Source: a virus. Taken from it: 64,000 bases of DNA. Position numbers and translations under genes: made by a program. The notes below the pieces were generated by a model that did no database searches, was not told where the DNA came from, and was given only the letters and a program-made list of their open reading frames with translations. How positions within the stretch are numbered: the first letter of the stretch is position 1; every line of letters begins with the position of its first letter. The stretch covers positions 64,001 through 128,000 of IMG/VR virus record IMGVR_UViG_3300045988_165036, one strand, 5' to 3'. This document shows, piece by piece, positions 2,529 through 22,415 of the stretch.

Positions 2529-3071
2529 ATGTTGAATATTGGTTATTTGACTTCTGATACAACCGCTTGCGGGGATGAGATGTATACCCCGTTTTATGCA
2601 GTTGCGCCTCTTGTCAAGCACTTGAAGAATAGCGGGTATAAAACCATTTGGTGTCCGTTTGACGAGGAGTGGAGCGCGTATGTCAGAATGTTCAAAGAAG
2701 AGGGGTTTAACGTTATTCGGAGCTTGTTGTCTGATGGAAAAGACTTCTTTCAATATGAGCCCGACGAGCCGTATGATGTTATTATTAGTAATCCGCCGTT
2801 TTCAAAAAAAGACGAGGTTATTCGCCGACTTGATGAACTCGGAAAACCGTTCGCGATTCTCCTTCCGTTAAATAGTTTACAGGGGAAGTCACGATTTGAT
2901 GTTTTCAAAAATGGAATTCAACTTTTGAGTTTTGACCAACGTATCGGATTTCATACTCCAAAAAGTATGAAGACGCCCCTTGAGGGCAGCCCGTTTGCAT
3001 CTGCGTATTTTTGCCGAGATTTCTTGCCGAGATTTCTTGCCGAGAGACTTGATTGTAGAGCGGTTGGATAA
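2529..3071 (+). CDS. DNA methyltransferase (N6-A/N4-C type, NPPF motif)
   Basis: DVIISNPPFS catalytic motif IV; RBS GGAAGGAG. Confidence 0.7.
   Translation: MLNIGYLTSDTTACGDEMYTPFYAVAPLVKHLKNSGYKTIWCPFDEEWSAYVRMFKEEGFNVIRSLLSDGKDFFQYEPDEPYDVIISNPPFSKKDEVIRRLDELGKPFAILLPLNSLQGKSRFDVFKNGIQLLSFDQRIGFHTPKSMKTPLEGSPFASAYFCRDFLPRFLAERLDCRAVG
3011..3045. repeat. 13-nt tandem repeat TTGCCGAGATTTC, 2.7 copies, inside the methyltransferase 3' end
   Basis: Exact copies at 3011-3023 and 3024-3036, partial copy 3037-3045. Confidence 0.9.
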
Positions 3072-3107
3072 ATATGATAGACCTCTAATAGAGGATGGTG
3101 CGAGTGG

Positions 3108-3638
3108 ATGTTAATTGAGTGTTTTTGCGGTTGCCGGAACAAAATCGAGCAATCTTGCGCATATAAGGTTGTTCTCGGTGGAACTCGTAAAGTTTACTTT
3201 TTGAACGAACAACATTATCGCCGTTGGCAGGACAAAAATTCGGCAAAATCCAATAAGATTGATGAAAAAGAATTCGCTCCGATTTACGATGCTGTGCTCG
3301 ATATTTGCGGAGGAAAATTTACCGGACGAACCATCGTTTGGAAGGAATACTTGACTTGGAAAGAAGCCGTCGATGGGAATGGCAACAAAGTCAAGTGGTA
3401 TTTGACAGAGAATAAACGCTCGCTGTCGGAGACATTGAAGAAAAAGTATTTTGAGAGCGACTTCGGTATGATTAAATATTTGAGTGCAATTGTTAAAAGC
3501 AATGTGGCGCAGTATCGGTCGAATGAGTATATGAGTTTGCCGCTGAAAGAATCTGAATCACAGGTGAAAGAAAATACGGCGGTAATCCCGAATAGTAAAC
3601 GAAGAAAGTCGTTGGCAGAATTGGAGGACGAAGCGTAA
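3108..3638 (+). CDS. hypothetical Cys-rich protein upstream of the helicase
   Basis: ORF with N-terminal CFCGC...C cluster; position suggests a replication accessory role (inference only). Confidence 0.55.
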   Translation: MLIECFCGCRNKIEQSCAYKVVLGGTRKVYFLNEQHYRRWQDKNSAKSNKIDEKEFAPIYDAVLDICGGKFTGRTIVWKEYLTWKEAVDGNGNKVKWYLTENKRSLSETLKKKYFESDFGMIKYLSAIVKSNVAQYRSNEYMSLPLKESESQVKENTAVIPNSKRRKSLAELEDEA

Positions 3639-3640
3639 AC

Positions 3641-5248
3641 ATGTGTCAGATGGAACAGTTTGTAACAGGTGTTGTTGATCAGTATCCGCAGGAGCTTCTT
3701 GAAAATAGATTAACAATTGAAGGAAATTTAATTGCGTGCCTTTACGCAGATATTACGCTGTATGACGATATAAAATCCACGGTTTCTTCGGAAACATTTC
3801 TCTCTCGGCACGGAAGACTTCTTTTTGGAGTTGTTAAATATCTTCGCGAAAAGCACTTTAATGTAATCGATGAGGTGACAGTTCTTTCCAATTGTCCGGA
3901 AGAGGTCCTTGATCGTCTGCAGAGTATCGGTGGTTGGAAGACAATTCAGAAACTTGCTTCCACCGTTGATCTGAAGAACTGGGATGCGATTCTGGACGAG
4001 TTCAACAAAAGCAACATTATTCTGAAACTTCACAAGAATGGATTTAATCTTCTCGAAGAAGTAACGCTTGACAATGGGAAGAAGATTAAACCACTGAAAC
4101 TGTTTGAGAAGTTTAGCGCCAACAACGTTACTGAATGGTATGAAGAGAGGATTGCTAATATTTCAATTAACAATAGCGCTTCTTCGATGAAGATTATTAG
4201 TGACGGAGCTGCTTTGTTTGGGGATGAGTTTCTTGAAAGTTTGAAAGAAGACGGAGATGATGGGGTATCTCTTAGTGAGGCTGGATTGAATTTTGAAGAA
4301 AAAGAAATACCGATGTTTCCATTTTTGTCAAGACAGACATCTGGACTTCATCGTGGGACAACGAGTGCGCTCGCCTCTCACTCCGGATGCGGTAAAACAA
4401 ACCTTATGATGAACATTGTCTTTACTCTTCTTCAAAAGGGGCTTCGTGGCGTTTTTATTAGTAACGAAATGTCAGAAAGAGAACTAAAAATAATTATGAT
4501 GATGATTATTTTGGTTCAATATAGAAATTATTGGAAGATTACGAAGAAAAAGCTTCGTAATAACGATTTGACAGAGGAAGACAAAGACGAAGTTCGAGCT
4601 GCTTCGAAATGGTGGGATAATGGACCAGGAAAAAACTTAAAAATTGTCACAATGAGCGACGCCGATTCCTCTTTGACACATGATATTATTAAAAAAGAGG
4701 CTCTTCGCAATGGAATTGATTTTTATGTCGTGGACACTTTCAAGATGACACTCGAAGAGGGTGGAAACTCTGCGTTCTGGATTGATTTGATTAAAGATTC
4801 TCGAGATATGGATTCTCTCGCGAAAAAATACAATCTTATCGGTCTTTATACCATTCAGCTTGTTGCGAACAGTATTGGAAACCTGTTCCTTAATGCGTCG
4901 GCACTTTCCGGTTCGAAAGCTATAAAAGAGGTTGTCAGTTTGTTGTTTTTCCTTAGAAAATGTGAGGCAGAAGAGCTCGAAGCAGGCGGCCCATATGATT
5001 TCAGACCGTTTAGGTCGAAACAACAATCCGATGGATCGTGGAAAGATGAACCATACGATCTGGATGAAAAAGAGCGCAGAGAGGTTTATCGCGTTTTATC
5101 AGTTGACAAAAATCGATACGGAGCGGATGCTGGAGATAACGGAGTTGCGTTCTTGTATAAATATCGTGGGGATTTTTGTAAATGGGGAGAAACTTGTAAG
5201 GTTAGACCTGTTCATAAACGAATTGGACAGGATACAAACGCAAGATAA
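3641..5248 (+). CDS. dnaB: DnaB-like replicative DNA helicase
   Basis: Walker A SHSGCGKTNLMMN, Walker B-like YVVDTFK, DnaB-type N-terminal domain. Confidence 0.8.
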   Translation: MCQMEQFVTGVVDQYPQELLENRLTIEGNLIACLYADITLYDDIKSTVSSETFLSRHGRLLFGVVKYLREKHFNVIDEVTVLSNCPEEVLDRLQSIGGWKTIQKLASTVDLKNWDAILDEFNKSNIILKLHKNGFNLLEEVTLDNGKKIKPLKLFEKFSANNVTEWYEERIANISINNSASSMKIISDGAALFGDEFLESLKEDGDDGVSLSEAGLNFEEKEIPMFPFLSRQTSGLHRGTTSALASHSGCGKTNLMMNIVFTLLQKGLRGVFISNEMSERELKIIMMMIILVQYRNYWKITKKKLRNNDLTEEDKDEVRAASKWWDNGPGKNLKIVTMSDADSSLTHDIIKKEALRNGIDFYVVDTFKMTLEEGGNSAFWIDLIKDSRDMDSLAKKYNLIGLYTIQLVANSIGNLFLNASALSGSKAIKEVVSLLFFLRKCEAEELEAGGPYDFRPFRSKQQSDGSWKDEPYDLDEKERREVYRVLSVDKNRYGADAGDNGVAFLYKYRGDFCKWGETCKVRPVHKRIGQDTNAR

Positions 5249-5271: not shown

Positions 5272-5757
5272 ATGATTATTATTGGATTTCCCGGGATTGG
5301 TAAAAGTAGCGTAACTCGCGCATATGAGGGCGACGCCAACACAACTGGTTATATCGACCTTGAAAGCAGTAATTTTGTTAAGGACGACAACTGGGTGAAG
5401 GAATACTGCGACCTTGCTCTTGACCTTGATTTACAGGGATATAATGTTTTTGTTTCGTCTCACAAGAATGTGCGAGAATATTTAGTAGAGAAACAAGACA
5501 TTTTTCCGTACATTATGGTGATATTCCCGTCGAAAGAAATACGTACCGAGTGGCTGAACAGGCTCGAATCTCGTTATATGAAGTGCAAAACTGATAAAAA
5601 CGAAAGAGCTCTAAGCTATATGCGCAACAATTTCGATGATGCCGTAGATGAAATGGAGCACGATGCGATTGTTCATAAGGTTCTGATCACCAAAGAAAAT
5701 ATGAATGATTTGAAGAAGGCGATGGTGGATTATTGGAATAAGTGGTATTCTGAATAA
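5272..5757 (+). CDS. P-loop NTPase / nucleotide kinase-like protein
   Basis: IIIGFPGIGKSS Walker A; RBS AAGGAG. Confidence 0.55.
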   Translation: MIIIGFPGIGKSSVTRAYEGDANTTGYIDLESSNFVKDDNWVKEYCDLALDLDLQGYNVFVSSHKNVREYLVEKQDIFPYIMVIFPSKEIRTEWLNRLESRYMKCKTDKNERALSYMRNNFDDAVDEMEHDAIVHKVLITKENMNDLKKAMVDYWNKWYSE

Positions 5758-5759
5758 TT

Positions 5760-6040
5760 AAAAAAATAATTTTATTTGGAGGATATTGTGGTCAACCGCC
5801 CAGTTTCCTAAATGAGATGTGGGCTTGAGTAATCGAGCCCACTGATTGATCAGACTAAGTGTTTCGAGCACTACGTTATCAAAGAATATATAGGCACCGT
5901 TGGATGTACTCTCCAGTCTGACGCACTGCGGTATGTGATTAAACAGTTCTGATGGGTAGGAACAGTGTTGCATACGAAAACCTTTGAATAACATTGTCGT
6001 GGAGTAACTACTCTAACATACAGGAGGTTATAGAAACATT
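5760..6040 (+). ncRNA. candidate IscB omega-RNA (structured leader directly upstream of iscB)
   Basis: 280 nt non-coding; 10-bp stem GTGGGCTTGA-GTAA-TCGAGCCCAC (GNRA loop) plus further hairpins; position matches known IscB loci. Confidence 0.5.
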
Positions 6041-6989
6041 GGTGTATGTGTTAAACAAACAAAGTAATCCCTTGATGCCTTGTAAAGAAGCAAAAGCAAG
6101 AAAATTGCTAAAACAAAATAAAGCTATTATAGTAAAATATGAGCCATTTACAATTCAATTGACTTTTGAGTGTGAAAATCAAACGCAAGAAATTTCTCTC
6201 GGAGTTGATGCTGGAAGTAAACACATTGGCATTTCTGCAACAACAGAGAAACAAGTTTTGTATGAAGCAGACGTTGAATTAAGAAACGATATCGTAGATA
6301 AACTCTCTTCTCGTAGAGAAGCAAGAAGAACGAGAAGAAACAGATTGAGATATCGTCCCACAAGATTCAACAATCGAGTTCATTCAAAACACAAAGGTTG
6401 GCTTGCTCCAAGCATCGAGCAGAAAATCAATTCGCATATTCAGGCAATCAAAAGACTTCATCAAATTCTTCCGATTTCAAAAATTATTGTGGAAACGGCG
6501 CAGTTTGATATTCAAAAAATTCAGAATCCAGATATTGAAGGAGAACAATATCAACAAGGTGATCAAATGGGGTTTTGGAATGTACGTGAATATGTGCTTT
6601 TCAGAGATGATCACAAGTGTCAGTATTGTAAAGGAAAATCTAAAGACAATCGATTAAATGTTCATCATATTGAGGGTCGTAAGACGGGCGGAAACGCTCC
6701 GAATAATTTAATTACGTTGTGCGAAACCTGCCATAATGATTATCATCAAGGGAAAATTCAGCTAAATATTAAGCGCGGAAAGAGCTTTCGAGATGCGACA
6801 TTTATGGGCATTATGAGAAAGACATTGTTGTTGAGATTAAGGGAAATATATCCGAATGTTCAAGAAACTTTTGGTTATATTACGAAGAACACCAGAATTG
6901 AAAATAGTCTTCCGAAAGAACATTATATAGACGCAAGATGTATTAGTGGAAATCCTTTAGCAAAACCGTTAGGATATTATCTTTATTAA
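6039..6989 (+). CDS. iscB: IscB RNA-guided nuclease (PLMP, RuvC-I, Arg-rich bridge helix, RuvC-II, HNH, RuvC-III), up to an in-frame TAA
   Basis: NPLMPC; LGVDAGSKHIG; RREARRTRRNRLRYRPTRFNNR; GWLAPSIE...VETAQFDIQK..YQQG; HKCQYC...HHIEG...NLITLCETCHNDYH; KEHYIDA; RBS AGGAGG 6022-6027, then TTG 6039 / GTG 6042. Confidence 0.85.
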   Translation: MVYVLNKQSNPLMPCKEAKARKLLKQNKAIIVKYEPFTIQLTFECENQTQEISLGVDAGSKHIGISATTEKQVLYEADVELRNDIVDKLSSRREARRTRRNRLRYRPTRFNNRVHSKHKGWLAPSIEQKINSHIQAIKRLHQILPISKIIVETAQFDIQKIQNPDIEGEQYQQGDQMGFWNVREYVLFRDDHKCQYCKGKSKDNRLNVHHIEGRKTGGNAPNNLITLCETCHNDYHQGKIQLNIKRGKSFRDATFMGIMRKTLLLRLREIYPNVQETFGYITKNTRIENSLPKEHYIDARCISGNPLAKPLGYYLY

Positions 6990-7286
6990 AAATGTGTTAG
7001 AAGACAAAATCGTAAAATGACGAAAGATAATTTTATCAGAGGTGGAGTTAAAAAAAGTAATCAGTTAGTTGGCGATGTCTTCGGATTTGGGTTATTTGAT
7101 ACGGTTGAATATCAAAAGAAGAAGTATTTTGTGTTTGGTAAACGAAAATCTGGATTTCTGGACATTAGAACACTTGATGGAGAAAAAGCTAACAACGGCT
7201 CTATAAGCTACAAAAAACTAAAATTAATTCAAAAGAATAATAATATATTAACAGAAAGGAGTTTGTCAATTCCTACGCAACCATAA
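6990..7286 (+). CDS. iscB: IscB C-terminal domain, same frame after TAA 6987-6989
   Basis: KCVRRQNRK..IRGGVKKSNQ..GFGLFDTVEY..FGKRKSGFLDIRTLDG..SYKKLKL, typical of RRXRR/IscB C-termini; 7017 is in frame with 5994. Confidence 0.75.
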   Translation, partial: KCVRRQNRKMTKDNFIRGGVKKSNQLVGDVFGFGLFDTVEYQKKKYFVFGKRKSGFLDIRTLDGEKANNGSISYKKLKLIQKNNNILTERSLSIPTQP

Positions 7287-7316
7287 AGGGATTGCTGTTT
7301 CTTTGGCAATAGTATT

Positions 7317-7481
7317 ATGAACGAGGCGGTCAAAGTTGGGTTTTATCCAAAAGATTTGTTTATACTTTTAGCGAAGAACCGGCTTGTGGCAGATTGGCAA
7401 ATTCAGAATCAAAAGAACGCAAGAAAGTTTCATAGTTATTTTTGGGTCTTCGAAAAGTCTGACAAAAAAATAGAATATTAA
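7317..7481 (+). CDS. possible small ORF (54 aa), or a remnant
   Basis: ATG 7317 to TAA 7479-7481, no RBS. Confidence 0.2.
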   Translation: MNEAVKVGFYPKDLFILLAKNRLVADWQIQNQKNARKFHSYFWVFEKSDKKIEY

Positions 7482-7486
7482 TTTTT

Positions 7487-7525
7487 GCAAAACCTCTTGA
7501 CAAACAGGAGGTTTTGCGCTATAAT
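7487..7525 (+). promoter_or_regulatory. consensus promoter with the -35 box in a 10-bp hairpin loop
   Basis: GCAAAACCTC-TTGACA(7497-7502)...GAGGTTTTGC; TATAAT 7520-7525; 17 nt spacer. Confidence 0.75.
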
Positions 7526-7570
7526 AATAGTAGAAATGAAAGATTGGCTTTATTTACAAAGGATTTTTGA

Positions 7571-7609
7571 AAAGGAGAGAAAAAAATGACTATTGTTGAC
7601 TTTTATAAG
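7571..7609 (+). other. orphaned strong RBS plus ATG (7586), probably the original primase start, cut off by the TnpB element
   Basis: AAAGGAGAGA then ATG 7586; this frame ends after 29 codons and is +1 relative to tnpB. Confidence 0.45.
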
Positions 7610-8801
7610 AAAGGTGAAAGCGATTATAAAAACAATTCGAGTAATGTTGCTTCCAAACAACAAACAGCAAACTAAATTATTTCAATATGCCAATACTGCT
7701 CGTTTTGCTTATAACTGGGCAATAGGAAGAGAACAAGAAAATTATAAGAATGGTGGAAAATTTATATCTGATGGAGACTTACGAAAAGAGTTTACACAAT
7801 TAAAGAAAACTTCTGAATATGCGTGGCTAAACAATGTTTCTAACAATGTAACAAAGCAAGCAATTAAAGATGCTTGTGAGGCGTACAAAAATTTCTTTAA
7901 GGGAATTACAAAGTCCCCACGATTTAAGAGTAAGAAATATTCAATGCCGAAATTCTACCAAGATAATGTAAGAATTCAGTTTACAGACACACATGTAAAG
8001 ATTGAGGGTTTTGCTACGTCTAAGAAAAAGAATAAGCAAAGACTTAACTGGATAAGACTTGCCGAACGCGGAAGAACACCTATTGGAAATACAAAGTATA
8101 TGAATCCACGCATTAAATATGATGGACTTAATTGGTATATCACAGTTGGAATTGAATACGAAAATTCTACCGCTCCTCCAACCAACGAAGGTGTTGGAAT
8201 CGATTTAGGCATTAAAGATTTGGCAATATGTTCTGACAAGAACAAGTATCAGAATATAAACAAAACCCAAAGAGTTAAGAAGTTAGAAAAAAGAAAGCGC
8301 AGGCTACAACGTTCCATATCAAGAAAATATGAGAATAATAAGAAAGGAGAGCGTTACTGCAAAACAAGCAATATTATAAAAAGTGAAAAAGAACTTTTAA
8401 AATTGAATCACAGACTAACGAATATTCGTCAGAACTACCTACATCAAACAACATCTGAAATTGTAAAACGAAAACCAAGTTTTATCTGTATGGAAGATTT
8501 GAATGTGAGTGGAATGATGAAGAATAAACATTTGTCTAAAGCAGTTCAGCAACAAGGGTTTTATGAATTTAGGAGACAGATTGAATATAAGTCTGAGTGG
8601 AATAACATTCCAGTAATTATAGCAGATAGATTCTTCCCGAGTTCTAAGTTATGTAGTTGTTGTGGAAATATCAAAAAGGATTTGAAACTTAGCGACCGCA
8701 TTTACAAGTGTGAATGTGGAAATATCATAGATAGAGATTATCAAGCAAGTCTAAATCTGAAAAGACATGGAGAAATGTTATTAGAACAATCTGCATTATA
8801 A
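7593..8801 (+). CDS. tnpB: TnpB (IS200/IS605 OrfB-type RNA-guided nuclease), copy 1
   Basis: N-terminal ...LLPNNKQQTKLFQYANTARFAYNWA; RuvC GIDLGIKDLA; ...CMEDLNVSGM; Zn finger CSCCG..CECG; DRDYQASLNL; likely start GTG 7614. Confidence 0.85.
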   Translation: MLTFIRKVKAIIKTIRVMLLPNNKQQTKLFQYANTARFAYNWAIGREQENYKNGGKFISDGDLRKEFTQLKKTSEYAWLNNVSNNVTKQAIKDACEAYKNFFKGITKSPRFKSKKYSMPKFYQDNVRIQFTDTHVKIEGFATSKKKNKQRLNWIRLAERGRTPIGNTKYMNPRIKYDGLNWYITVGIEYENSTAPPTNEGVGIDLGIKDLAICSDKNKYQNINKTQRVKKLEKRKRRLQRSISRKYENNKKGERYCKTSNIIKSEKELLKLNHRLTNIRQNYLHQTTSEIVKRKPSFICMEDLNVSGMMKNKHLSKAVQQQGFYEFRRQIEYKSEWNNIPVIIADRFFPSSKLCSCCGNIKKDLKLSDRIYKCECGNIIDRDYQASLNLKRHGEMLLEQSAL

Positions 8802-8956
8802 CACTTTCAAGTTAATGCAGATATGTACTGGCACGTTAGTCAGGAATTTACGCCTATAGAGTGTACAAGAACTTGTGAGTAGTATATCAGAAATGATTAC
8901 AAAAGCATATACGATGAAATAGGAATGAAACATAAAAGTTTATAACTTTTTATAAG
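7599..8956 (+). mobile_element. TnpB-only IS-like element flanked by ACTTTT(T)ATAAG direct repeats
   Basis: ACTTTTATAAG 7599-7609 and ACTTTTTATAAG 8945-8956; no tnpA. Confidence 0.5.
8802..8956 (+). ncRNA. possible 3' part of the TnpB omega/reRNA (right-end region)
   Basis: Non-coding tail directly after tnpB, by analogy with known TnpB loci. Confidence 0.3.
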
Positions 8957-8977
8957 TTTTCAGTAACGGAAGCCACG

Positions 8978-9988
8978 ATGCTCACAGATGTTAAACAAAT
9001 GTTAATAGAAAACCCAGAGCACATCGTGGAATTGCTCGAAAGGTTTGAGTTCTGCCACATCCATCTCAAACGAACAGAAATTCGGTTTGCCCGTAACGAA
9101 GAAGGTGGTCAGAACATCTCAATTCGGCTCGAAGATAATCCTTCAATTTATGTTAAAGATTTCGTAACAAATGAGAACGGCGACATTATCGCGTATATAA
9201 TGAAAAGTCGTTCGGTGAAGTTTGTCGAAGTCTTGTCGGAAATCAAGAGCGTTCTCGGGCTTGGAGACGATTGGGAGCCCCCAAAGCGCGATATGTTGTT
9301 CGGTGGATTTTATGACCGAATTGGAGAGGATAGACATATTGAGATTACGACGTATCCCGAATCGATTATGGACCAATATGTCGATAAGGGAAATCGGCGC
9401 TGGCTCGATGATAACATTTCACTTGCGGTTCAGCACGAGTTCGGGGTCAGATTTGACCCGATAGAAGACCTGATTGTGTTTCCGTGGAGGTCGCCCGTCG
9501 GAGGAGAGATTATCGCAGTAAAAGCTCGCGTTAATCACCCGTTGGAAGATGGTCAACAGAAATATTGGTATGTTTACAAGGGCGCCGTCAGTAATTCTCT
9601 TTATGGTATTATGGAGAATTATAGCGGACTGTTTGGAAACGAAATTTGTGTTGTTGAAAGCGAAAAAGCCGTCCAGCAACTGGCGACAATGGGATATCGA
9701 AACACAGTGGCTCTTGGGTCGAGCAATTTGTCAGAGGAGCAGGCTCGGCTAATTATGACGCTTTCTCCGACTTCCGTTGTGTTCTTGTTGGACGAAGGAC
9801 TGGAAAAGGAACACACGATGAAAAATGTGGAAACATTGCGTCAGTATTGCGTATTAAGAGATTTGCCGATTCGTTGGTGGAATTGGACGAAAAGCTCGGT
9901 TGTTGATGGGAGCGGGAAGAATAGTCCGACCGATTTGGGGAAAGAGAGGTTTGACAAGGTTATGAGAGAGGAGCTAGAAGTGATTTAA
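8978..9988 (+). CDS. dnaG: DNA primase (TOPRIM, DnaG-like)
   Basis: ICVVESEKAVQQL..., VVFLLDEG acidic TOPRIM motifs; no RBS before ATG 8978. Confidence 0.7.
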   Translation: MLTDVKQMLIENPEHIVELLERFEFCHIHLKRTEIRFARNEEGGQNISIRLEDNPSIYVKDFVTNENGDIIAYIMKSRSVKFVEVLSEIKSVLGLGDDWEPPKRDMLFGGFYDRIGEDRHIEITTYPESIMDQYVDKGNRRWLDDNISLAVQHEFGVRFDPIEDLIVFPWRSPVGGEIIAVKARVNHPLEDGQQKYWYVYKGAVSNSLYGIMENYSGLFGNEICVVESEKAVQQLATMGYRNTVALGSSNLSEEQARLIMTLSPTSVVFLLDEGLEKEHTMKNVETLRQYCVLRDLPIRWWNWTKSSVVDGSGKNSPTDLGKERFDKVMREELEVI

Positions 9989-10947
9989 TGGGCGCATTTA
10001 AAGATATAACTGGACAGCAATTCGGAGACTTCATCATCGACTCTTTTGACCCGACAAAAGGTAAGTATAAATATTATTGGAATTGTCATTGTGTAAAATG
10101 TGGTTATAAAAAATCAGTAGAAGGAAGCAGTATTAGAGCCGGAAATAGTACAAGATGTATTTGTGATAAGTCTTTTGGACGAAGAGAAAGTCTCGGATAC
10201 GAAAAAGATATATCTGGAAAAGTTTATGGTGGTTTAACTGTTTTGGGCTATTGCGACACGAAAAGCACACGTTCAAGATGGCTGTGTAAATGCAATTGTG
10301 GGAACGAGGAAGTTTTTAGTATTTCACAATTAAAAAGAAGAAAAAATCTGATGTGTTCCCAATGTGTGGAAAAATATAAAGATATAAGAAATGTGATTTC
10401 AGAAGAAAATTTAGACTCTAATGGGATTCCAATAAATATTGTTCAATCTACTCAAAGAAAACAAAACAAATATGAAATTCAAAACGATGAGACTATTATC
10501 AACGATAAAATTATTGTAGATAGTAAGTTTATGGATTGTTTGAAATCATTCGATAGATACATTAGTATAGACAGCCGTGGATATGCATATTTTTCATATT
10601 GTGGTCAAGATGTATATTTACACAGACTTTTGACAAACACCTCATTATTTTTCGATACGAATGGCAAAGACATAGAAATAATCGATCATATAAACAGAAA
10701 TAGATGCGATAACAGAATTGAAAATTTAAGAACGATTAAAAAATCTGAAAACTCCATCAATTGTTCAGTATATTCAAATAATAAAAGTGGGTATAAAGGT
10801 ATTTCTTGGCTTGAAAGATTACAAAAATGGCAAGTGAACATTCAATACAGAAAGATAAATTATTATGTTGGCGTGTTTGAAAATATTGATGATGCAATTT
10901 TAGCAAGAAAACGAGCAGAAATGGATTTATTTGGAAAGGTGAATTAA
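9988..10947 (+). CDS. HNH homing endonuclease with C-terminal AP2 DNA-binding domain
   Basis: HINRNRCDNRIENLR (HNH_3-like) plus SGYKGISWLERLQKWQVNIQY...VGVFENIDDAILARKRAE (AP2). Confidence 0.8.
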   Translation: MGAFKDITGQQFGDFIIDSFDPTKGKYKYYWNCHCVKCGYKKSVEGSSIRAGNSTRCICDKSFGRRESLGYEKDISGKVYGGLTVLGYCDTKSTRSRWLCKCNCGNEEVFSISQLKRRKNLMCSQCVEKYKDIRNVISEENLDSNGIPINIVQSTQRKQNKYEIQNDETIINDKIIVDSKFMDCLKSFDRYISIDSRGYAYFSYCGQDVYLHRLLTNTSLFFDTNGKDIEIIDHINRNRCDNRIENLRTIKKSENSINCSVYSNNKSGYKGISWLERLQKWQVNIQYRKINYYVGVFENIDDAILARKRAEMDLFGKVN

Positions 10948-10949
10948 AA

Positions 10950-13900
10950 ATGCAAAATCTTCATCGGCATACTTCGTATTCAAATGTTTGTATTGCAGAT
11001 TCTGCGGCAACAAATGAACAATATGCCAAAAGAGCGGTAGAATTGGGTCACAAAGTAATTAGTAGCGTCGAGCACGGGTGGCAGGGATATTATTATCAAT
11101 GTTATGAACTTGCTCAAAAATATAATCTCAAATTTGTTTTTGGAGCAGAGGCATATTGGGTAAAAGACAGGAAAAAAGAATATGAAGAAATTGATCCATT
11201 GACAGGAGAACCGTTAAAAAATAAAGACGGAACAATAAAGGCGCATAAAGATAACTCTAATTGTCATATATTACTTCTTGCAAAAACAGAAATCGGAAGA
11301 CGCGCCATCAACAAAATTCTTTCAGAGGCAAACGAAACGGGGTATTATTTTAGACCCCGTGTCGATCTCGAACTTCTTCTTTCCCTCCCTCCTGACGATG
11401 TGGTCGTAACAACTGCTTGTGTGGCATATTGGAAATATGAAGATATCGAAGATATTACTCTTCGGTTGTGGAAACATTTTGGAAAAAACTTTTATCTGGA
11501 GATCCAAGCGCATAAAACAGAACAACAGAGAGAAATCTCCCGTAGAATTCTTTCCTTGTCGCGAAGATATGGAATTGAAATGATTGTTGGTCTTGACAGT
11601 CATTACATTTATCCGGAACAGGCACAGGAGAGAGAATATATTCTTGAAGCAAAAGACGTCCATTATAAAGACGAAGAGGGGTGGTATATGGACTATCCCG
11701 ACGACGAAGAGGTTATGAGACGTTTTATGGAGCAAGGAGTTTTTACAAGGGAACAGGTTCAAAGAGCGATGGATAACACGGACATCTCTCTAACGTTTGA
11801 TGATTATGCAAAAGACAATCCTGTTTTCAGCAAAGATATTAAACTTCCTACTCTTTATCCGAATCTTTCACAAGAAGAAAGAAACAAAAAATATAGTGTT
11901 CTGATTAGTAAGCTTTTTAGAGAGTATGCAGAGAAACATCACATTACGGGAGAAGAGTATAAGAGATATCTTGAAGGAATCAAAATGGAAGTTCAGACGG
12001 TTAAAGATACCGGAATGGCCGATTACTTCCTTCTCGACTATGAAATCGTCAAAAGAGCGATTGAAAAAGGGGGCGTTTTGACAGACAGTGGAAGAGGATG
12101 TTTTACGTCTGACGCAATGGCTTTAACGATGGGCGGAATCAAACATATTAACGAAGTTAAAGTTGGAGATTTTGTAATAGATCAAAACGGAAATCCGCAA
12201 AAAGTTGTTAACACAATGGAATATGATTGCGATGAGGAAATAGTTCAACTTCTTTATGCATATGGACCAAATACTCATAATCCATTGATTTGCACAAAAG
12301 ATCACAAGATCTTGATTCATAGAAACGGGCAAAATTCTTGGATTGAAGCCGGGAAAATTCAGCAAGGAGACTATGTTTGTTCTCCGAAAATTCATTTCGA
12401 AAATCGAGCACCTGAATATATTGATTTAAATGATTATAATGTTTTTGGGTATGATTTTGACGACGAATACATTTACGAATATCGTCCAGCTGCAAATGGT
12501 GTTGTTGAATTTAACTCCATTGATGTTTCTAAACACATTGGATGTTCCAAGCCGTGGGTTTTGCAAGTCGTTAAAAATCCTAATCGCACGAAGTTTAAGC
12601 ATCCCGAATATGTGGACAGATTATTGAAATATACCGGATTTAGTTCTCTTCAAGAATATAGGGATTATTTAAAAAACTCTCATGTTATCAAGATTAAGAG
12701 ATTTATAAAAAACGACGAGCTGTTCAACACGTGGATTGGTATGATGTATGGCGATGGATGGGTTCGCGGCGCGAAAGAATCTACAGAGGTTGGAATGGCG
12801 TTTTCTACCTATGGACACAAACAGTCTTACAACAGAGAGATTTGTATTAAAATGATCGAACGTTTTGGTGCTCCGTATAATTGTGCCATCCATAAAACAA
12901 AACAATTGGAACAAATTATTATGAAGAGCCGCATCGTTAATGAATTTTGTAAAAATTTTCTATTCACAAGTAAGAAGGGAAAGGCAAAAATCTTTAATCA
13001 AGATTTATTTTATCAATCCGAAAATAACTTAAGCGCGCTATTAAACGGTTTAACGATTACTGATGGGAGCATGGGAAAAGAAAAAAGAAGAGACAGCTTT
13101 GACAACACGTCTCAAAGCATTGTTGGAGCATATAAAATTTTAGTGTCGGCAGTCTCTCCTTGCCCCACAAGTCTGCTTGTCAGAAACGCATACGAAGATA
13201 GTAGAGGATATCATTCTCAGACTGGTTATAAAATAAGAGTTATGAAAGATACGGACACTCATGTGCTTTCGGCGTATAGAACTCTTTCTGACAACAACTA
13301 TGTTTATCTTCCTGTTTCTCAAATTAAGGCAATTGAGAAAAGCAAACGAAAAGTATATGACATTACCGTTGAAAATTCCCACAGTTATGTATTAGATAGC
13401 ATAGTTGTTCATAATTCATCAGTTGGATATTTCACAAACACTCTTCTTGGTTTTTCAAAAGTCGATAGATTTCAAAGTCCGATAACTCTTTATCCTGAAC
13501 GATTTATTAGTAAAACAAGAATTCTAGAAACCCATTCTCTTCCAGATATTGATATGAACTGGGGAACCCCCGAAATTGCAGAAGAAGCACAGAAAGAAAT
13601 TCTTGGAGACGACCACGCAATTCCAATGATCGCCTTCGGAACCTGTAAAAAGAAGTCGGCGTTTAAATTGTTCGCTCGTTCTCAAAATATGGATTTCGAA
13701 CTGGCAAACACCATCTCTTCGCAAATTGCAGATTATGAAGAAGCAGTTAAAAACGCAGAAGATGATGATAAAGATCAGATTGATATTTATGATTTTGTAG
13801 ATAAAAAATATTCCAACTATATTGAACAGAGCAAAAAGTATTGGGGCATTATTATGGATAAGAAGAAAGCTCCTTGTGCCTTTCTTCTTTATCAAGGCAA

Positions 13901-15554
13901 TATCCGAGAAGAAATTGGTCTGATTAAATGTAAGTCGGAATCAACAGGAAAAGAATTTTTAACAGCCGTTGTAGACGGAGCGATTGCAGAAAATTATAAA
14001 TTTCTAAAAAACGATATTCTTTGTGTAAGTATTGTTCTTTTGGTTGATAAGATTTATCGTAGAATTGGAATTCCGCACAAAACGGTTGAAGAACTGAAAG
14101 ATTTCGTTAAAAACGATCCAAAAACTTGGGACATTTATAAAAACGGATATACTCTTGGGGTTAATCAGTGTGAGCAAGTAAGTTCTGCAAAGAAAATGAT
14201 GCGCTTTCAAGCAAAAAACATTTCAGAACTTTCGGCGTGGATTGCCGCAATTCGCCCTGCTTTCAAGTCGATGTACTCCAAGTTTGAATCGAGGGAATCT
14301 TTTAGTTATGGAATTCCTGCCTTTGACAAACTCCTACAGACAGAAGAACTTCCGCAGTCGTGGATTTTGTATCAGGAGCAGTCGATGTCTGTTCTTTCGT
14401 ATGCAGGATTTCCGATGGATGAATGTTATGGAATCATAAAGGCAATTGCTAAAAAACACCCCGAAAAGGTTCGTCCGTTGAAGGATAGATTTATCGAAGG
14501 ATTCAAAAAGAGGATTGTTACAGAGGAAGGAATTGAAGAAACTCAAGCGCAGGAAATGAGCGAACGGGTTTGGCAAATCATCAACGACTCTTGCGGGTAC
14601 GGTTTCAATTCTGCTCACGCATATTGTATGGCAATCGATAGTCTTTCTTGCGCAATGTTGAAAGCGAATTATCCATACGAATTTTATGAGGTGCTTTTAC
14701 AGTTCCATTCAGATAGAGGAGAAAAAGATAAGGTTGGCGCTCTAAAAGCGGAAATGAAAAAGGCTTTTGGAATTCAAGAAGGTCCATATCGATTTGGAGA
14801 AGATAACCGAAAGTTTAATGCAATTCCGGAAAGAGGAATTATTCAACCGTCTCTCTTGTCAATTAAGGGATTGAGTCAGGATTTGGCAAACGACCTTTAT
14901 GAACTTTCTAAAACAAAACGATTCGATAATTTTATAGACCTGTTGAGAGAATTCGATCATATGAAATCAATGAATGTTGCGAAGTTGGATACATTGATTA
15001 AACTCAATTATTTCTCGCAATTCGCACCTATTGGAAAACTTCTGAACATTGTCGAGCTCTATAATAAGTTCGGAACCAGCAAAACACTCAAAGAATCTGA
15101 CGTTTTGTCTCTTCCAACGCCTATTCAAGAAGTTATTGCAAAATATACCGTTAAACCGAAAACACAGTATAAAATCACAGATAGCGACGGAATGCTCCGG
15201 GAACTCGCGGGGTTGGTTGGAGAACGCCCGATTACGATGATGATGCGGCTGGAATGGGAGCAACAGTATTTGGGTTATTGCGCTTCTACCGACCCATCGC
15301 AACAGGGAAGTTGGTTAGTTCTGGACGCCGATACTAAATATTCTCCGAAGTTGACAATTTTTTCTATTTGGAGTGGAGAACAGCGTGTTGTTAAAGTCTC
15401 GAAGCGCGACTTCCAATCCAATCCTCTCACCAAAGGTGATACAATTCGTCTGACTATCGAACAACGTCCGAAGGCGAAGCTCGTAGATGGACAGTGGGTT
15501 AAGGACGAAAACGTTAAAGAAGATTGGCTAAAATATTATTCAATTGTAAAGTAA
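10950..15554 (+). CDS. dnaE: DNA polymerase III alpha subunit (DnaE-like, PHP domain), containing an intein
   Basis: HRHTSYSN PHP motif; extein junction SGRG|SSVGYF corresponds to DnaE GPGRGSAAGS. Confidence 0.85.
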   Translation: MQNLHRHTSYSNVCIADSAATNEQYAKRAVELGHKVISSVEHGWQGYYYQCYELAQKYNLKFVFGAEAYWVKDRKKEYEEIDPLTGEPLKNKDGTIKAHKDNSNCHILLLAKTEIGRRAINKILSEANETGYYFRPRVDLELLLSLPPDDVVVTTACVAYWKYEDIEDITLRLWKHFGKNFYLEIQAHKTEQQREISRRILSLSRRYGIEMIVGLDSHYIYPEQAQEREYILEAKDVHYKDEEGWYMDYPDDEEVMRRFMEQGVFTREQVQRAMDNTDISLTFDDYAKDNPVFSKDIKLPTLYPNLSQEERNKKYSVLISKLFREYAEKHHITGEEYKRYLEGIKMEVQTVKDTGMADYFLLDYEIVKRAIEKGGVLTDSGRGCFTSDAMALTMGGIKHINEVKVGDFVIDQNGNPQKVVNTMEYDCDEEIVQLLYAYGPNTHNPLICTKDHKILIHRNGQNSWIEAGKIQQGDYVCSPKIHFENRAPEYIDLNDYNVFGYDFDDEYIYEYRPAANGVVEFNSIDVSKHIGCSKPWVLQVVKNPNRTKFKHPEYVDRLLKYTGFSSLQEYRDYLKNSHVIKIKRFIKNDELFNTWIGMMYGDGWVRGAKESTEVGMAFSTYGHKQSYNREICIKMIERFGAPYNCAIHKTKQLEQIIMKSRIVNEFCKNFLFTSKKGKAKIFNQDLFYQSENNLSALLNGLTITDGSMGKEKRRDSFDNTSQSIVGAYKILVSAVSPCPTSLLVRNAYEDSRGYHSQTGYKIRVMKDTDTHVLSAYRTLSDNNYVYLPVSQIKAIEKSKRKVYDITVENSHSYVLDSIVVHNSSVGYFTNTLLGFSKVDRFQSPITLYPERFISKTRILETHSLPDIDMNWGTPEIAEEAQKEILGDDHAIPMIAFGTCKKKSAFKLFARSQNMDFELANTISSQIADYEEAVKNAEDDDKDQIDIYDFVDKKYSNYIEQSKKYWGIIMDKKKAPCAFLLYQGNIREEIGLIKCKSESTGKEFLTAVVDGAIAENYKFLKNDILCVSIVLLVDKIYRRIGIPHKTVEELKDFVKNDPKTWDIYKNGYTLGVNQCEQVSSAKKMMRFQAKNISELSAWIAAIRPAFKSMYSKFESRESFSYGIPAFDKLLQTEELPQSWILYQEQSMSVLSYAGFPMDECYGIIKAIAKKHPEKVRPLKDRFIEGFKKRIVTEEGIEETQAQEMSERVWQIINDSCGYGFNSAHAYCMAIDSLSCAMLKANYPYEFYEVLLQFHSDRGEKDKVGALKAEMKKAFGIQEGPYRFGEDNRKFNAIPERGIIQPSLLSIKGLSQDLANDLYELSKTKRFDNFIDLLREFDHMKSMNVAKLDTLIKLNYFSQFAPIGKLLNIVELYNKFGTSKTLKESDVLSLPTPIQEVIAKYTVKPKTQYKITDSDGMLRELAGLVGERPITMMMRLEWEQQYLGYCASTDPSQQGSWLVLDADTKYSPKLTIFSIWSGEQRVVKVSKRDFQSNPLTKGDTIRLTIEQRPKAKLVDGQWVKDENVKEDWLKYYSIVK
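12099..13415 (+). mobile_element. intein (439 aa) with LAGLIDADG homing endonuclease
   Basis: Starts CFTSDAM; TKDHKIL block B; LAGLIDADG motifs WIGMMYGDGW and LLNGLTITDGS; ends VYDITVENSHSYVLDSIVVHN, +1 residue Ser. Confidence 0.85.
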
Positions 15555-19527: not shown

Positions 19528-20007
19528 ATGTTTCAAGATGATGTTCTTTTCTGCGGCTGCGGCCACATTCATGTTGTATCTGGAAAGGATTATTCCGATG
19601 CTGTCGAAGCAGGCAAAGAGAATCTCCTGATCTGTGGTAACTGCGGGGCGATGTACATTCATGGTGCAGAGGAGGTCGAGGGCGGCTATTCTCTGTATCG
19701 ACACGAACTCCCTCAGAATCTCATGACAAGCGAAAACAACTACTCCACAGACCTCACTGATTACCTGAAGAGATTTTATAAGGTGAACTATTCGGTGTGT
19801 TATGGTGTTCCGATGACCACTGGTTATTTCGCGGATACGCTTTTCTGTGGAAGCTTTCTCGACAATACGCACGATGATAATAACCAGCGGGTCGATATGA
19901 CGAGGTTTCTTCAAATAACTCCCGACCACGTTCTCAAGATGGTAAGTCAATACTACATCAGAGCCTTCAACTGGTCGAATACGAAATACGAACGGAAGAC
20001 AGTATAA
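19528..20007 (+). CDS. hypothetical Cys-rich protein (tandem paralog B)
   Basis: FCGCGHIHVV...LICGNCGAMY; its leader and RBS are similar to those of 18973. Confidence 0.6.
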   Translation: MFQDDVLFCGCGHIHVVSGKDYSDAVEAGKENLLICGNCGAMYIHGAEEVEGGYSLYRHELPQNLMTSENNYSTDLTDYLKRFYKVNYSVCYGVPMTTGYFADTLFCGSFLDNTHDDNNQRVDMTRFLQITPDHVLKMVSQYYIRAFNWSNTKYERKTV

Positions 20008-20065
20008 GAAATACTAAAAATTAGAGTTTGTGGAAAACCTCTTCAAAACCACGGAGAGGAAATAT

Positions 20066-20444
20066 TATGCTTACCACTTACAAAACTGCTGAACAGAAAT
20101 ATCTTTTCGAAGCCTACGCGAACGAAGAAGGATTCATCACTCAAGAAACCGTCGACAAGCTCTCCGATATGCTTTCCGATGATGTCTATGTTCGTCCGGA
20201 AGGAGGATGTGACTACAAGACGAAGGCGACCAATGCAGAAAAGAAGTTCCTTGCGCAGCTTCTCGGAGCTGGACTCTTGGCAATCAGAGACGGAGGCGAA
20301 TTCTATTCGGTTGCGAATGCTCTTGAATATATGTTCGTGCGTTGGAACTCCGACAGCAAGGGAAGACATCTGAACAGTTATTTGACTTTCTACTGTCCTC
20401 TCGCAAGACTGTGCGGAAGAGGGGAGAAAGAAAATGAAAAATAA
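20066..20444 (+). CDS. hypothetical protein
   Basis: GGAGAGG RBS then ATG 20066. Confidence 0.55.
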
Positions 20445-20730
20445 AGGATTGAAGAGGGTAAGCAGGAGGCGTCTTAAGCAGATATATCCTAATAAGAAGC
20501 TTTCCATAGGACTTTCCTATTATGTCGGAATGACGACCGAACTGGAGTATGTATTGATCGCCAAGATGAATTTCTTCGGAGGATTGATTACTATTCTTGG
20601 AGCTCCTGTTTTTATTCTGATTGAAGGAGTAGCGTCTTATAAGGAGACCCTTTTGTCTGACATTCATCGTGAGGAGTCCTGTACTATCCTCCAGGAAAAT
20701 TACGAAAGATTGTTGAATAAAAGACTCTGA
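20434..20730 (+). CDS. hypothetical protein with a hydrophobic segment
   Basis: ORF with RBS GGGGAG. Confidence 0.5.
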   Translation: MKNKGLKRVSRRRLKQIYPNKKLSIGLSYYVGMTTELEYVLIAKMNFFGGLITILGAPVFILIEGVASYKETLLSDIHREESCTILQENYERLLNKRL

Positions 20731-20848
20731 GTTGAGACAGACTGAGTTCTTTTTGATGAGAAGAGGCGGAGGATGCTTCTCCTTCAAACAAAAATATTTT
20801 TTCAAAAGAAAGTTTTATTAAGAAAGAACAAGGAGGAACAACCTCACA

Positions 20849-21145
20849 ATGACGAATATTTACGAGGCGTGCGACGGCAGACAATTTACCGACTATAAAA
20901 CCGCTACAGACTACGAAACTTTATTACAAACTTTTGTGCTTTTCACCGATGATGGAGATATTACCTTCGGTCTTGGTGCTGCGATGTATCTTTTTTGCCC
21001 TACGGTTGATAGTATTAACAACTTTAATCATTGCTATAAAGATAGACTGTCTCGTCTCATCGATGATAGAGTACCGGGGCTATATATTAAACAAGAGGGA
21101 TGTTTTATGGATCCGATTTTTGTAAAGATGTCTTCGAATGAATAA
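20849..21145 (+). CDS. hypothetical protein
   Basis: AAGGAGG RBS. Confidence 0.6.
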   Translation: MTNIYEACDGRQFTDYKTATDYETLLQTFVLFTDDGDITFGLGAAMYLFCPTVDSINNFNHCYKDRLSRLIDDRVPGLYIKQEGCFMDPIFVKMSSNE

Positions 21146-21202
21146 GTTGTTTTAGTTCGGCACAGTCTATTAAACATTAAAAATTAGAAAAGGAGAAGTT
21201 TT

Positions 21203-21346
21203 ATGAAAATTGTTTTGATTTGCTTAGCATCGCTAATTCTTGTTACGGTTTTGCTTTTTTTAATAGCCTGCTGTATGGTATCGGGAAGGTGCTCGAAGCA
21301 GGAAGAACTAAGGAATAGGATGACCGAGTATGAGGAGACTTTTTAA
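21203..21346 (+). CDS. small membrane protein (47 aa, below the ORF-track cutoff)
   Basis: AAAGGAG RBS; MKIVLICLASLILVTVLLFLIACC... Confidence 0.5.
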   Translation: MKIVLICLASLILVTVLLFLIACCMVSGRCSKQEELRNRMTEYEETF

Positions 21347-21461
21347 TTATTTCTTAGAGTGGTATTATAGAGAATGCTATGCTTGCAGATATAGGCATCG
21401 ATGGGATGCGTGTTACGAATGCAAGTGTCGAGGAAAACATTCGCTGTGGCGACGAAAATAG
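21330..21461 (+). CDS. possible small Cys-rich protein (43 aa)
   Basis: ATG 21330; CYAC...CYEC. Confidence 0.25.
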   Translation: MRRLFNYFLEWYYRECYACRYRHRWDACYECKCRGKHSLWRRK

Positions 21462-21538
21462 CTTCCTTTGAAGGATATAGATCATAAAAAAGAAAGGAAG
21501 ATGGTTTTTATTATGAACAGAAATAATAAAATTTTTCA

Positions 21539-21637
21539 GAATATGATGTGTATAATAAAGAAGAAGATGACTACTTTGTATTGGAATCAGACAACATATA
21601 TTTTACGAGGGAAGAAGCGAAAGGAGAATTAAAATGA
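21539..21637 (+). pseudogene. start-less duplicate of the 3' end of gene 17372..17599
   Basis: EYDVYNKEEDDYFVLESDNIYFTREEA vs YDVYDKEENRYFVLESDEIYFTKEEA; preceded by TAA TAA. Confidence 0.6.
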
Positions 21638-21882
21638 ACGAAGCCTATCTTGTCGTGAAAGGGAGGAAAGAAATGAGTAAATGTGATTGCTATCAATTTG
21701 AAACCAAAAGACGCTATTTATCAAACATTGACAAAATAACTTACACATTGGCCACTGAAAGGCTTGCGCCCGAATATATTGATGAAGAAGTTGGTGTTTG
21801 TTATGGCACTAAAGAAAAAGATGTTTGTAATTGCGGTGGAGATTGGAGAGTATTGGGGAACAGATCCGATTTATTATGTTGA
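21634..21882 (+). CDS. hypothetical Cys-rich protein, possibly frameshifted into the 21764..21982 frame
   Basis: Two overlapping protein-like frames; G4 run 21854-21857. Confidence 0.45.
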   Translation: MNEAYLVVKGRKEMSKCDCYQFETKRRYLSNIDKITYTLATERLAPEYIDEEVGVCYGTKEKDVCNCGGDWRVLGNRSDLLC

Positions 21883-21965
21883 CTCTAAAAACAAGGAAGA
21901 AGACGGAGCGGCGAAATTGTGTTGTAAAATTCTGGAAGCAATTCGGGTGTCACGGGGAGGAATCG

Positions 21966-22277: not shown

Positions 22278-22366
22278 TGTCAATTATCTTGTCTTCAATT
22301 GCTATCGTTTCATCTGTCGTTTCACTTTTCATTGTGCTTTCGATAGATCGAGATAACGAGAATTAA
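22274..22366 (+). CDS. small single-TM protein (30 aa)
   Basis: GGAGG RBS; ATGA overlap; MMSIILSSIAIVSSVVSLFIVL. Confidence 0.4.
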   Translation: MMSIILSSIAIVSSVVSLFIVLSIDRDNEN

Positions 22367-22378
22367 ATTATTTTTTCA

Positions 22379-22415
22379 AAAAGCCCTTGACAACTGAGGG
22401 CTTTTGTGGTATACT
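22379..22415 (+). promoter_or_regulatory. consensus promoter with the -35 box in a hairpin loop
   Basis: AAAAGCCC-TTGACA(22387)...GGGCTTTT; TATACT 22410-22415. Confidence 0.7.

Follow-up and report, generated by a model that had tools for sequence, protein, structure and literature searches.

Does a mobile element split an essential replication gene in two? The question is raised by a 64,000-nucleotide stretch of viral DNA (IMG/VR record IMGVR_UViG_3300045988_165036, positions 64,001 to 128,000; the window in what follows), in which a gene for the RNA-guided nuclease TnpB lies directly upstream of a DNA primase gene. A sequence-only reading of the window had taken ATG 7586 as the true start of the primase, the open reading frame (ORF) as split after codon 8 by the TnpB element, and an 11-nt repeat at the two edges of the interval as a target-site duplication. 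Our comparisons give a different answer. We hold it very probable that the segment at about 7576-8969 is a decayed, non-autonomous IS607-family element, made up of tnpB and a RAGATH-18 guide RNA and lying between the Shine-Dalgarno (SD) sequence of the primase and its start codon; this assessment covers the whole reading, with homing, read-through transcription and weakened translation of the primase included.

The signals on which the sequence-only reading was built are present in the DNA. A promoter of the form TTGACA/TATAAT occupies 7497-7525, and the ribosome-binding site AAAGGAGAG at 7572-7580 precedes ATG 7586, which opens a frame of 29 codons to 7675. The tnpB frame, whether counted from 7593, 7614 or 7623 to its end at 8801, is +1 relative to ATG 7586. 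Both copies of the repeat were found, as ACTTTTATAAG at 7599-7609 and ACTTTTTATAAG at 8945-8956, and at each copy the triplets TTT TAT AAG keep a reading frame, that of ATG 7586 at the left one and that of the primase at the right one. It is the interpretation of these signals that changes.

The start of the primase gene

Because INPHARED holds no close cultured relative (megablast of window positions 20000-40000 gave no match), the comparison set was taken from IMG/VR, ENA and Logan contigs; tblastn matches of the primase among GenBank phages were all at 30% identity or less. Six IMG/VR loci encode primases 84-97% identical to that of the window, and four of the six (L084, L085, L086 and L088) have no TnpB upstream of the gene. 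The Logan contig L091 is a fifth empty relative with the same primase arrangement. The uninterrupted relatives read ...AAGAAAGGAAACCACG-ATG, and their primases begin at the Met equivalent to 8978, with ML[T/S]D[I/V]K as the first residues in all five. Each of the five empty sites consists of [A/C]AGAAAGG, 6-8 nt (for example AAACCACG) and the ATG; in the four IMG/VR loci the sequence downstream of the spacer reads ATGCTCAC..., and the native SD precedes this Met by about 8 nt. These empty sites bear out the earlier proposal that a mobile TnpB element has inserted at the 5' edge of the primase. The comparison with insertion-free relatives, which the sequence-only reading had itself suggested, places their starts at the 8978-equivalent Met, the outcome by which that reading said it would be refuted.

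A search of 5.8 billion proteins with the reconstructed N-terminus joined to the primase as the query gave 240 homologues at E < 1e-20. The best 120 of these 240 are nearly all 335-338 aa long and cover 95% of the query, which is all of it but the 15-aa extension. In an alignment of the N-termini of 12 homologues at 35-98% identity, nine begin ML[T/S/N][D/E/K][I/V/L]K at the 8978 Met and the remaining three have N-termini that are unrelated, longer or different; the extension MTIVDFYKFSVTEAT is shared by none of the 12. Since insertion-free relatives and homologues start at the same Met, we place the start of the primase gene at ATG 8978 (8978-9988, + strand), its native Met, which gives a complete protein of 336 aa. 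Its homologues are annotated as DNA primase, and a domain search gave a weak match to Toprim_4. On this comparison the primase ORF is untouched by the insertion and is not split.

The right end of the element and the repeat motif

In a megablast search of GenBank phages, three records share only window positions 7599-8969, and four phage right ends are identical through ...AAAGTTTATAACTTTTTATAAGTTTTCAGTAACGG and unrelated afterwards. A protein-guided scan of IMG/VR extended this to 80 loci with related tnpB genes, more than 60 of which carry the same right-end (RE) terminus in front of 41 distinct right flanks, with identity up to ...CAGTAACGG and divergence after ACGG. Because the copies are identical up to this terminus and their flanks diverge beyond it, the alignments set the right end of the element at 8969 (...TTTTCAGTAACGG|), 8 nt before ATG 8978. 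The element is thus outside the coding sequence, and the primase has not been decapitated. The residues FSVTEAT, previously counted as primase, are likewise not part of it: TTTTCAGTAACGG and the right repeat belong to the conserved right end of the element.

The right repeat itself (ACTTTTTATAAG, 8945-8956, + strand) is a subterminal motif of the RE, 13 nt from the element end and invariant or nearly so across RE alignments with unrelated flanks. Taken by itself, the window contains the shared 9-mer TTTTATAAG five times against 1.8 expected, and five is reached in 2 of 100 shuffles, so that there it is not beyond chance. An origin of the repeat by chance is nonetheless rejected because the motif is conserved across the family, more than 60 related elements having it at the RE and at least nine distinct ones at the left end (LE). 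We also reject a duplication made by TnpA, as the right copy lies 13 nt inside the element. The alignments thus identify ACTTTT(T)ATAAG as a subterminal end motif of the whole family, present in both ends, and not as the target duplication for which it had been taken. In IS607-family elements, such subterminal motifs are recombinase-binding sites. Elements of this family end in GG, insert at GG without duplication and carry short subterminal repeat motifs in both ends (PMC6188088). Correspondingly, the terminus here is GG (RE ...AACGG in more than 60 copies), and no flank is duplicated at the empty sites (AAAGG|AA..). These results remove a false alarm: the essential primase keeps its full length, and there is no need to invoke a new chemistry of transposition in the form of a target duplication by a TnpB element.

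Identity of the element

What remains of the element is a left-end fragment, the last ~22 codons of tnpA, an intact tnpB and a RAGATH-18 scaffold that forms the right end. The tnpB gene (7623-8801, + strand) has 392 codons from its canonical start, where the usual ATG is ATT in this copy; GTG 7614 and TTG 7593 are in-frame alternative starts. Its product matches the Pfam domains HTH_OrfB_IS605, OrfB_IS605 and Cas12f1-like_TNB, all above the cut-offs, and the RuvC D/E/D residues and zinc-finger cysteines are intact. The closest solved structure is 8iaz_A (residues 5-383, E 7.7e-84), to which the GIDLG, EDLN and DRD motifs align. Relative to L089, a genome that carries the element at the same site, tnpB has 27 synonymous and nine non-synonymous codon differences; because the differences are mostly synonymous, the codon comparison indicates that the gene is under purifying selection.

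The guide-RNA scaffold (right-end RNA, reRNA, or omega-RNA) and RE occupy 8802-8969 on the + strand and end in ...TATAAGTTTTCAGTAACGG. RAGATH-18 matches at 8853-8925 (+) over the full length of the Rfam model RF03064, with 69.4 bits against a gathering threshold of 44.9 and E 8.5e-12. The motif lies downstream of the tnpB stop at 8801, on the same strand and with no overlap of the coding sequence, and 162 of 168 nt of the scaffold and RE are identical to L089. Minimum free energy folding of 8802-8989 was uninformative (z = -0.22), and the covariance-model match is the relevant evidence for RNA structure. This arrangement is that of IS607 TnpBs, whose RAGATH-18-derived guide RNAs lie downstream of the coding sequence without overlapping it, and for which the target-adjacent motif (TAM) is 5'-AGGAG or 5'-GAGGG (PMC11061315).

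The 29-codon ORF (7586-7675, + strand) finds its explanation in a lost tnpA. The C-terminal tail of tnpA makes up its last 21-25 codons, and the frame ends at tnpA's own stop: the end KGESDYKNNSSNVASKQQTAN aligns with ...EGENDDKNNSSNVTSKQQTAN of the TnpA of Enterocloster phage CB457P1, at the same stop. In CB457P1 the gene immediately upstream of the homologous tnpB, and overlapping it, matches MerR HTH (helix-turn-helix; 2.5e-12) and Resolvase (2.4e-20); by these domain matches it is an IS607-type serine-recombinase TnpA. When this TnpA was searched against the whole window by tblastn, residues 197-221 alone were matched, at 7598-7672 (68% identity, E 4e-5). ATG 7586 is accordingly not the start of the primase; its frame is a remnant of the tnpA tail, and it is +1 relative to tnpB because tnpA normally overlaps tnpB. 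As tnpA persists only as this C-terminal remnant, the window copy is a non-autonomous derivative. The previous assignment to IS200/605 does not hold, because the partner transposase of the relatives is a serine recombinase, which places the element in the IS607 family; the flanks are also G/A-rich and end in GG.

The left boundary

The degenerate left end spans 7576-7609 (+ strand). Within it, ATTGTTGACTTTTATAAG at 7591-7608 corresponds to the -35 box of the tnpA promoter together with the inverted motif TTTTATAAG, which is the left repeat. This 18-mer matches the LE of nine distinct elements with at most three mismatches, always just 3' of A(C/G)TTATAAAnAGTTATAAA, where about three chance matches would be expected in 590 kb. 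Intact LEs (L001, L007, L015, L017 and others) have the form GG|nnnnTAACnGTTnnnnATA-A(C/G)TTATAAAnAGTTATAAA-nnnT(G/A)TTGACTTTTATAAGTTTT...TATAAT-tnpA, that is, two direct copies of the motif A(C/G)TTATAAA and then the inverted TTTTATAAG overlapping the -35 box of the tnpA promoter. In the RE, AGTTTATAAC is found together with that inverted copy, TTTTTATAAG.

The element occupies the primase site in four genomes (the window, L089, L093 and L094), and five are empty. An IMG/VR search for the window-type LE and for the RE-primase junction returned the L089 contig only; a metagenome scan added L093 and L094. The window-type genomes (window, L093 and L094) are homologous to L089 rightwards from 7573 and unrelated to it leftwards, with the break at GG|AGAG (7574-75|7576), and the left flanks GAAAAGG and GGCGGAGG both end in the RRAGG target consensus of the family. 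AAAAGG at 7570-7575 (+ strand) is the probable left insertion flank, ending in the GG crossover dinucleotide; before the insertion, it would have formed the left half of the primase SD. Our best estimate from these alignments is an element spanning 7576-8969 and a pre-insertion site of ...TTGAAAAGG|AAGCCACG-ATG; an empty site of the window type would read ...TTGAAAAGG|AA[A/G]CCACGATG.

The ends of related copies vary. In L004 (2944-3010) the RE terminus AAGTTTTCAGTAACGG stands directly before tnpB (GG|TGAAAATA-ATG). L005, L008, L013, L031 and L066 have neither LE nor tnpA, and their tnpB follows a host-like SD (...GGAGGTGG|TGAAGATG-ATG). Three independent tnpA deletions (window, L029 and L037-type) start right after TTTTATAAG. 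GG|TGA just upstream of tnpB may be a secondary recombination site.

Target choice and the predicted cost to primase translation

The left flanks of 17 distinct LE-bearing copies give the consensus A-N-R-R-A-G-G, with GG in 17/17 and A at -3 in 15/17. In these alignments the consensus is SD-like, and it is consistent with the published TAMs. At 21 of 40 independent right flanks, an ATG ORF of at least 50 codons starts 0-12 nt past the RE, compared with 11% of random positions that have one within 20 nt. The predicted SD-like TAM would thus put about half of the family's copies into an SD-to-ATG spacer, with a predicted cost to ribosome binding at the downstream gene.

For the primase this cost can be estimated. 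Predicted pairing with the anti-SD is -9.4 to -12.5 kcal/mol at empty sites and -3.5 to -3.8 kcal/mol at occupied ones (window -3.8), the native primase SD AAGAAAGG having been cut off from the gene by the insertion. The earlier statement that ATG 8978 has no RBS stands in so far as there is no good SD; a weak one does exist, at -3.8 kcal/mol. Its related suggestion, of an earlier role of the upstream promoter and RBS in expressing the primase, is right in that the insertion has parted the primase from both and wrong in that ATG 7586 is internal to the element. We propose that integration took place at the GG of the primase SD, in an ancestral site close to RRAGG|AA[A/G]CCACG-ATG; transcription from the promoter at 7497 would read through tnpB, the guide RNA and the primase, and the primase would be translated from a much weaker SD-like GGAAG made at the junction. 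No terminator-like site was seen on the + strand between this promoter and the primase.

Guide, target and proposed homing

Because the guide of an IS607 TnpB reRNA lies immediately 3' of the scaffold (PMC11061315), the predicted 20-nt guide and target, AAGCCACGATGCTCACAGAT, is placed at 8970-8989 (+ strand), where it takes in the spacer of 8 nt and primase codons 1 to 4; its register is uncertain by 1 nt, and it may begin at G8969. The corresponding guide of L094 equals the empty site of L084 at 20/20 positions, with AAGAAAGG upstream of the target. TnpB-mediated homing requires just such an arrangement, an occupied allele whose guide matches an empty one (PMC11061315; review PMC13565253), and the L094/L084 pair fits RNA-guided homing. 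The guide of the window (AAGCC...) has a mismatch to L084 at position 3 only. In the proposed mechanism, TnpB with its guide RNA would cut the empty sites of co-infecting relatives at an SD-like TAM followed by a matching target, the predicted targets being RRAGG-flanked AA[A/G]CCACGATGCTCACAGAT; recombinational repair would then copy the element into the cut genome.

In the 8 nt before the primase ATG, compared between L084, L085, L086, L088 and L091 on the one hand and the window, L089, L093 and L094 on the other, the first three positions after GG vary (AAA, AAG, GGA, GAA or a one-base deletion), and the remainder of the target is conserved coding sequence. This variation falls on the TAM-proximal seed positions of the predicted guide, and might represent escape from cleavage or merely a relaxed spacer. 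More speculatively, in this lineage the TAM and recombinase target could in essence be an SD, so that elements systematically come to lie between SD and start codon, a guide over the start codon of an often essential gene constrains escape and the promoter-to-primase boundary becomes a recurrent homing arena, at the price of weaker primase translation. This suggestion, which we regard as tentative, is based on the three kinds of TnpB at the boundary in close relatives, the IscB upstream of the promoter, the 20/20 alleles and the variable first three target positions. Whatever its merit, the locus provides a natural set of closely related phages with occupied and empty IS607 TnpB/reRNA alleles, suited to testing homing between phages.

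Weighing of the alternatives

Several observations weigh against the reading of the segment as an IS607-family element that homes at the primase SD. The exact left junction is inferred, with 7575|7576, a point near 7590 and 7614|7615 as alternatives; it is uncertain because the LE of the window lacks the outer pair of direct repeats and keeps the inverted copy only. Nothing changes for the primase if the boundary is near 7590 or at 7614|7615. No copy with a full LE and tnpA at the primase site was found among the relatives searched, and tblastn found no tnpA in the window beyond the C-terminal tail, so that the serine recombinase typical of the family is missing from this copy and, on this evidence, recombinase-driven mobility has probably been lost. 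The ATT at the canonical tnpB start occurs in the window alone, with ATG in L089, L093, L094 and most relatives; the window copy may be weakly expressed, give little or no TnpB, or be newly inactivated. None of the five empty relatives is a perfect match to the window guide, the mismatches being at position 3 or at more positions, and a characterised member of the family is sensitive to mismatches at guide positions 1-13 (PMC11061315). Finally, one or more of the TAM-contact residues of 8iaz differ (K80 aligns to N), and the region of N121/N122 is poorly aligned. A TAM prediction from the 8iaz contact residues was dropped, as the alignment is unreliable around N121/N122.

The split primase of the sequence-only reading would explain why the frames line up, why deletion of 7610-8956 leaves an open frame and why the primase ATG has no good SD. 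Against it, relatives with no insertion use the 8978 Met, each behind an SD of its own, none of the best 120 of 240 homologues, nearly all 335-338 aa, covers the extension (the MTIVDFYKFSVTEATMLTD... start), the FSVTEAT codons and right repeat recur as conserved element sequence in unrelated contexts, and the tnpA tail forms the end of the ORF opened at 7586. The in-frame coincidence carries little information, because the offset between the repeats is close to a multiple of 3 and the coincidence holds for several deletion end points. We consider a split primase extremely improbable. A different boundary follows if the insertion is a minimal tnpB-only module (TGAAAGCG-ATT...ACGG) at 7615-8969 behind the native primase SD AAGAAAGG at 7607-7614, with the LE-like 18-mer as unrelated or older debris. 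Those eight bases are indeed identical to the SD of the empty relatives, and in L005, L008, L013, L031 and L066 tnpB is preceded only by ...GG|TGA..., with no LE. The same bases are equally well explained as the tnpA tail, however: CB457P1 reads GAAGAAGG|TGAAAACG, and the homology continues in frame to the tnpA stop. Moreover, the adjacent 18-mer is clearly LE-derived, and L089 and the window are homologous leftwards to 7573. These points make the tnpB-only module unlikely, if far less so than the split primase.

The alternative that we take most seriously accepts the same identity for the segment and regards it as a dead relic, with no functional TnpB, owing to the ATT start, no mobility and no homing, kept because its removal is neutral or difficult. 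The change from the canonical ATG to ATT in the window genome only, the truncated LE and the missing tnpA all fit such a relic, and the nonsense codon in the neighbouring IscB element shows that decay of this kind occurs here. Yet the 392-codon tnpB is otherwise intact with its catalytic residues, its substitutions relative to L089 are mostly synonymous, an SD (AAAGGTGA) lies 5 nt before the ATT, and a promoter of perfect consensus stands ~100 nt upstream. In addition, L049 and L050 lack the ATG as well and probably start at the in-frame GTG 7614. A dead relic is therefore a real but clearly less probable possibility than an element that retains function. An IStron-like or self-splicing insertion, which would leave the primase mRNA and restore the RBS-ATG spacing at the RNA level, would account for the tolerance of an insertion beside an essential gene, and fusions of IS607- and IS605-type TnpB elements to group I introns do exist (PMC4227781; bioRxiv 10.1101/2023.11.20.567912). 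Here, a permissive Rfam search of 5600-9300 (E up to 5) returned HEARO and RAGATH-18 only and no model of a group I or group II intron; a ribozyme would have no space 5' of tnpB, and the 3' region is wholly accounted for by the RAGATH-18 scaffold. Self-splicing is thus highly improbable, and an IS607-family element with its tnpB and guide RNA between the primase SD and start codon is the reading that we retain.

The promoter and neighbouring features

The phage sigma-70-type promoter TTGACA-17-TATAAT (7497-7525, + strand; TTGACA 7497-7502, TATAAT 7520-7525) agrees with the consensus at 12/12 positions and is the best in a scan of 5600-10200. It is conserved in all relatives of the primase locus, with a 165-aa gene (MKEIKLTIDG...EHPEFVW) or other cargo under its control ahead of the primase; the window, L093 and L094 lack the 165-aa gene, and in them the promoter lies directly against the element. 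The -35 box lies inside a conserved 8-bp inverted repeat at 7489-7517 (AAAACCTC-TTGACAAACAG-GAGGTTTT), possibly an operator or else a promoter-overlapping terminator for transcription from upstream.

Just upstream, an IscB element occupies 5776-7479, with a HEARO omega-RNA at 5791-6011 (128.6 bits), ORFs at 5994-6989 and 7017-7286, and matches to Pfam RRXRR and HNH. It is absent from L084 and L089, whose homology to the window resumes at 7480. Because an in-frame TAA (6987-6989) stands where the relative L087 has CAA, the window IscB is probably a recent pseudogene. Other TnpB genes lie at the primase boundary in related genomes. In L087, a different, IS605-like TnpB (369 aa; 2787-4010) ends within the first four primase codons (...catatggg GTGGTTCAC ATCAAACAAATG), and an ORF from 3893 fuses 35 residues encoded by the right end to the primase; this is a genuine decapitation of the primase, in another genome than the window. 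In L091, a third, unrelated TnpB-like gene (403 aa; 1199-2410) lies between the conserved promoter and the primase, and the native SD (CAGAAAGGGAACCACG-ATG) is intact. Variable cargo and OMEGA nucleases (from obligate mobile element-guided activity) have a hotspot between this promoter and the primase.

Two further tnpB genes of the window, at 25050-26123 (+) and 56302-57396 (-), encode proteins 53% and 44% identical to the TnpB of the L087 type and ~31-35% identical to the copy at 7623-8801, and with them the 64 kb contain at least three TnpBs beside one IscB. An ORF at 9988-10947 (319 aa), which separates primase and polymerase, resembles a free-standing homing endonuclease of the HNH/AP2 type, its C-terminal motifs having been judged by eye. 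Homology of L084, L086, L088 and L089 to the window ends at ~9972, and that of L085 and L087 continues; on this basis the 319-aa ORF is variably present. It is followed at 10950-15554 by a 1534-aa ORF resembling DNA polymerase III alpha, with an apparent insert of intein size (...GRGCFTSDAM ... VVHNSSVGY...), also by eye. Three tRNA genes lie on the + strand at 39367-39448, 40313-40386 and 63709-63781 (Rfam tRNA, 52-70 bits).

Relation to known systems

Consideration of other mobile nucleases helps to place the window element. It resembles the free-standing homing endonucleases of phages (T4 Seg/Mob; intronless homing) as a selfish nuclease gene wedged amid conserved replication genes, in its presence/absence polymorphism among close relatives and in a target at the boundary of a neighbouring conserved gene. 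Unlike these enzymes it is RNA-guided, and self would be told from non-self by whether a TAM or the element end precedes the target; homing itself is proposed here. With the IS200/IS605 TnpB elements (ISDra2, IS608-type) it shares a TnpB nuclease, a guide RNA on the 3' side and a homing logic in which the left flank supplies the TAM and the right flank the guide. The Y1 HUH transposase, subterminal hairpins and AT-rich targets or TAMs (TTGAT, TTAC) of IS200/IS605 are all lacking here, as is an omega-RNA that overlaps the 3' end of tnpB.

The IS607/IS1535 transposons (Kersulyte 2000; Chen et al. eLife 2018, PMC6188088) are closer, with their terminal GG, target GG, lack of target duplication, subterminal repeat motifs in both ends and tnpA overlapping tnpB. 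The window family differs in preferring A-N-R-R-A-G-G and landing between SD and start codon, whereas IS607 is reported to need only (G)GG, and the window copy is non-autonomous.

The closest likeness is to the ISFba1 TnpB system (Cell Res 2024, PMC11061315; PDB 8iaz). Differences from it are the location of the window copy in a phage genome, the loss of tnpA and the outer LE, the ATT at the canonical start, and a shorter 3' flank of the scaffold (~44 nt, against 64 nt); one or more TAM-contact residues differ as well, so that the TAM may differ, the genomic consensus of the window family being RRAGG or ARRAG + G. In common with ISFba1 are a TnpB of ~390 aa with the same domains, for which 8iaz is the best structural-sequence match, a 73-nt RAGATH-18 past the tnpB stop with the guide immediately 3' of the scaffold, and a serine-recombinase tnpA in full-length relatives of the window element. 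The LE-adjacent flank is likewise purine- and G-rich, SD-like and in line with AGGAG/GAGGG, with cleavage and TAM predicted here. The window element is another member of the IS607-family TnpB/RAGATH-18 kind, which is already known.

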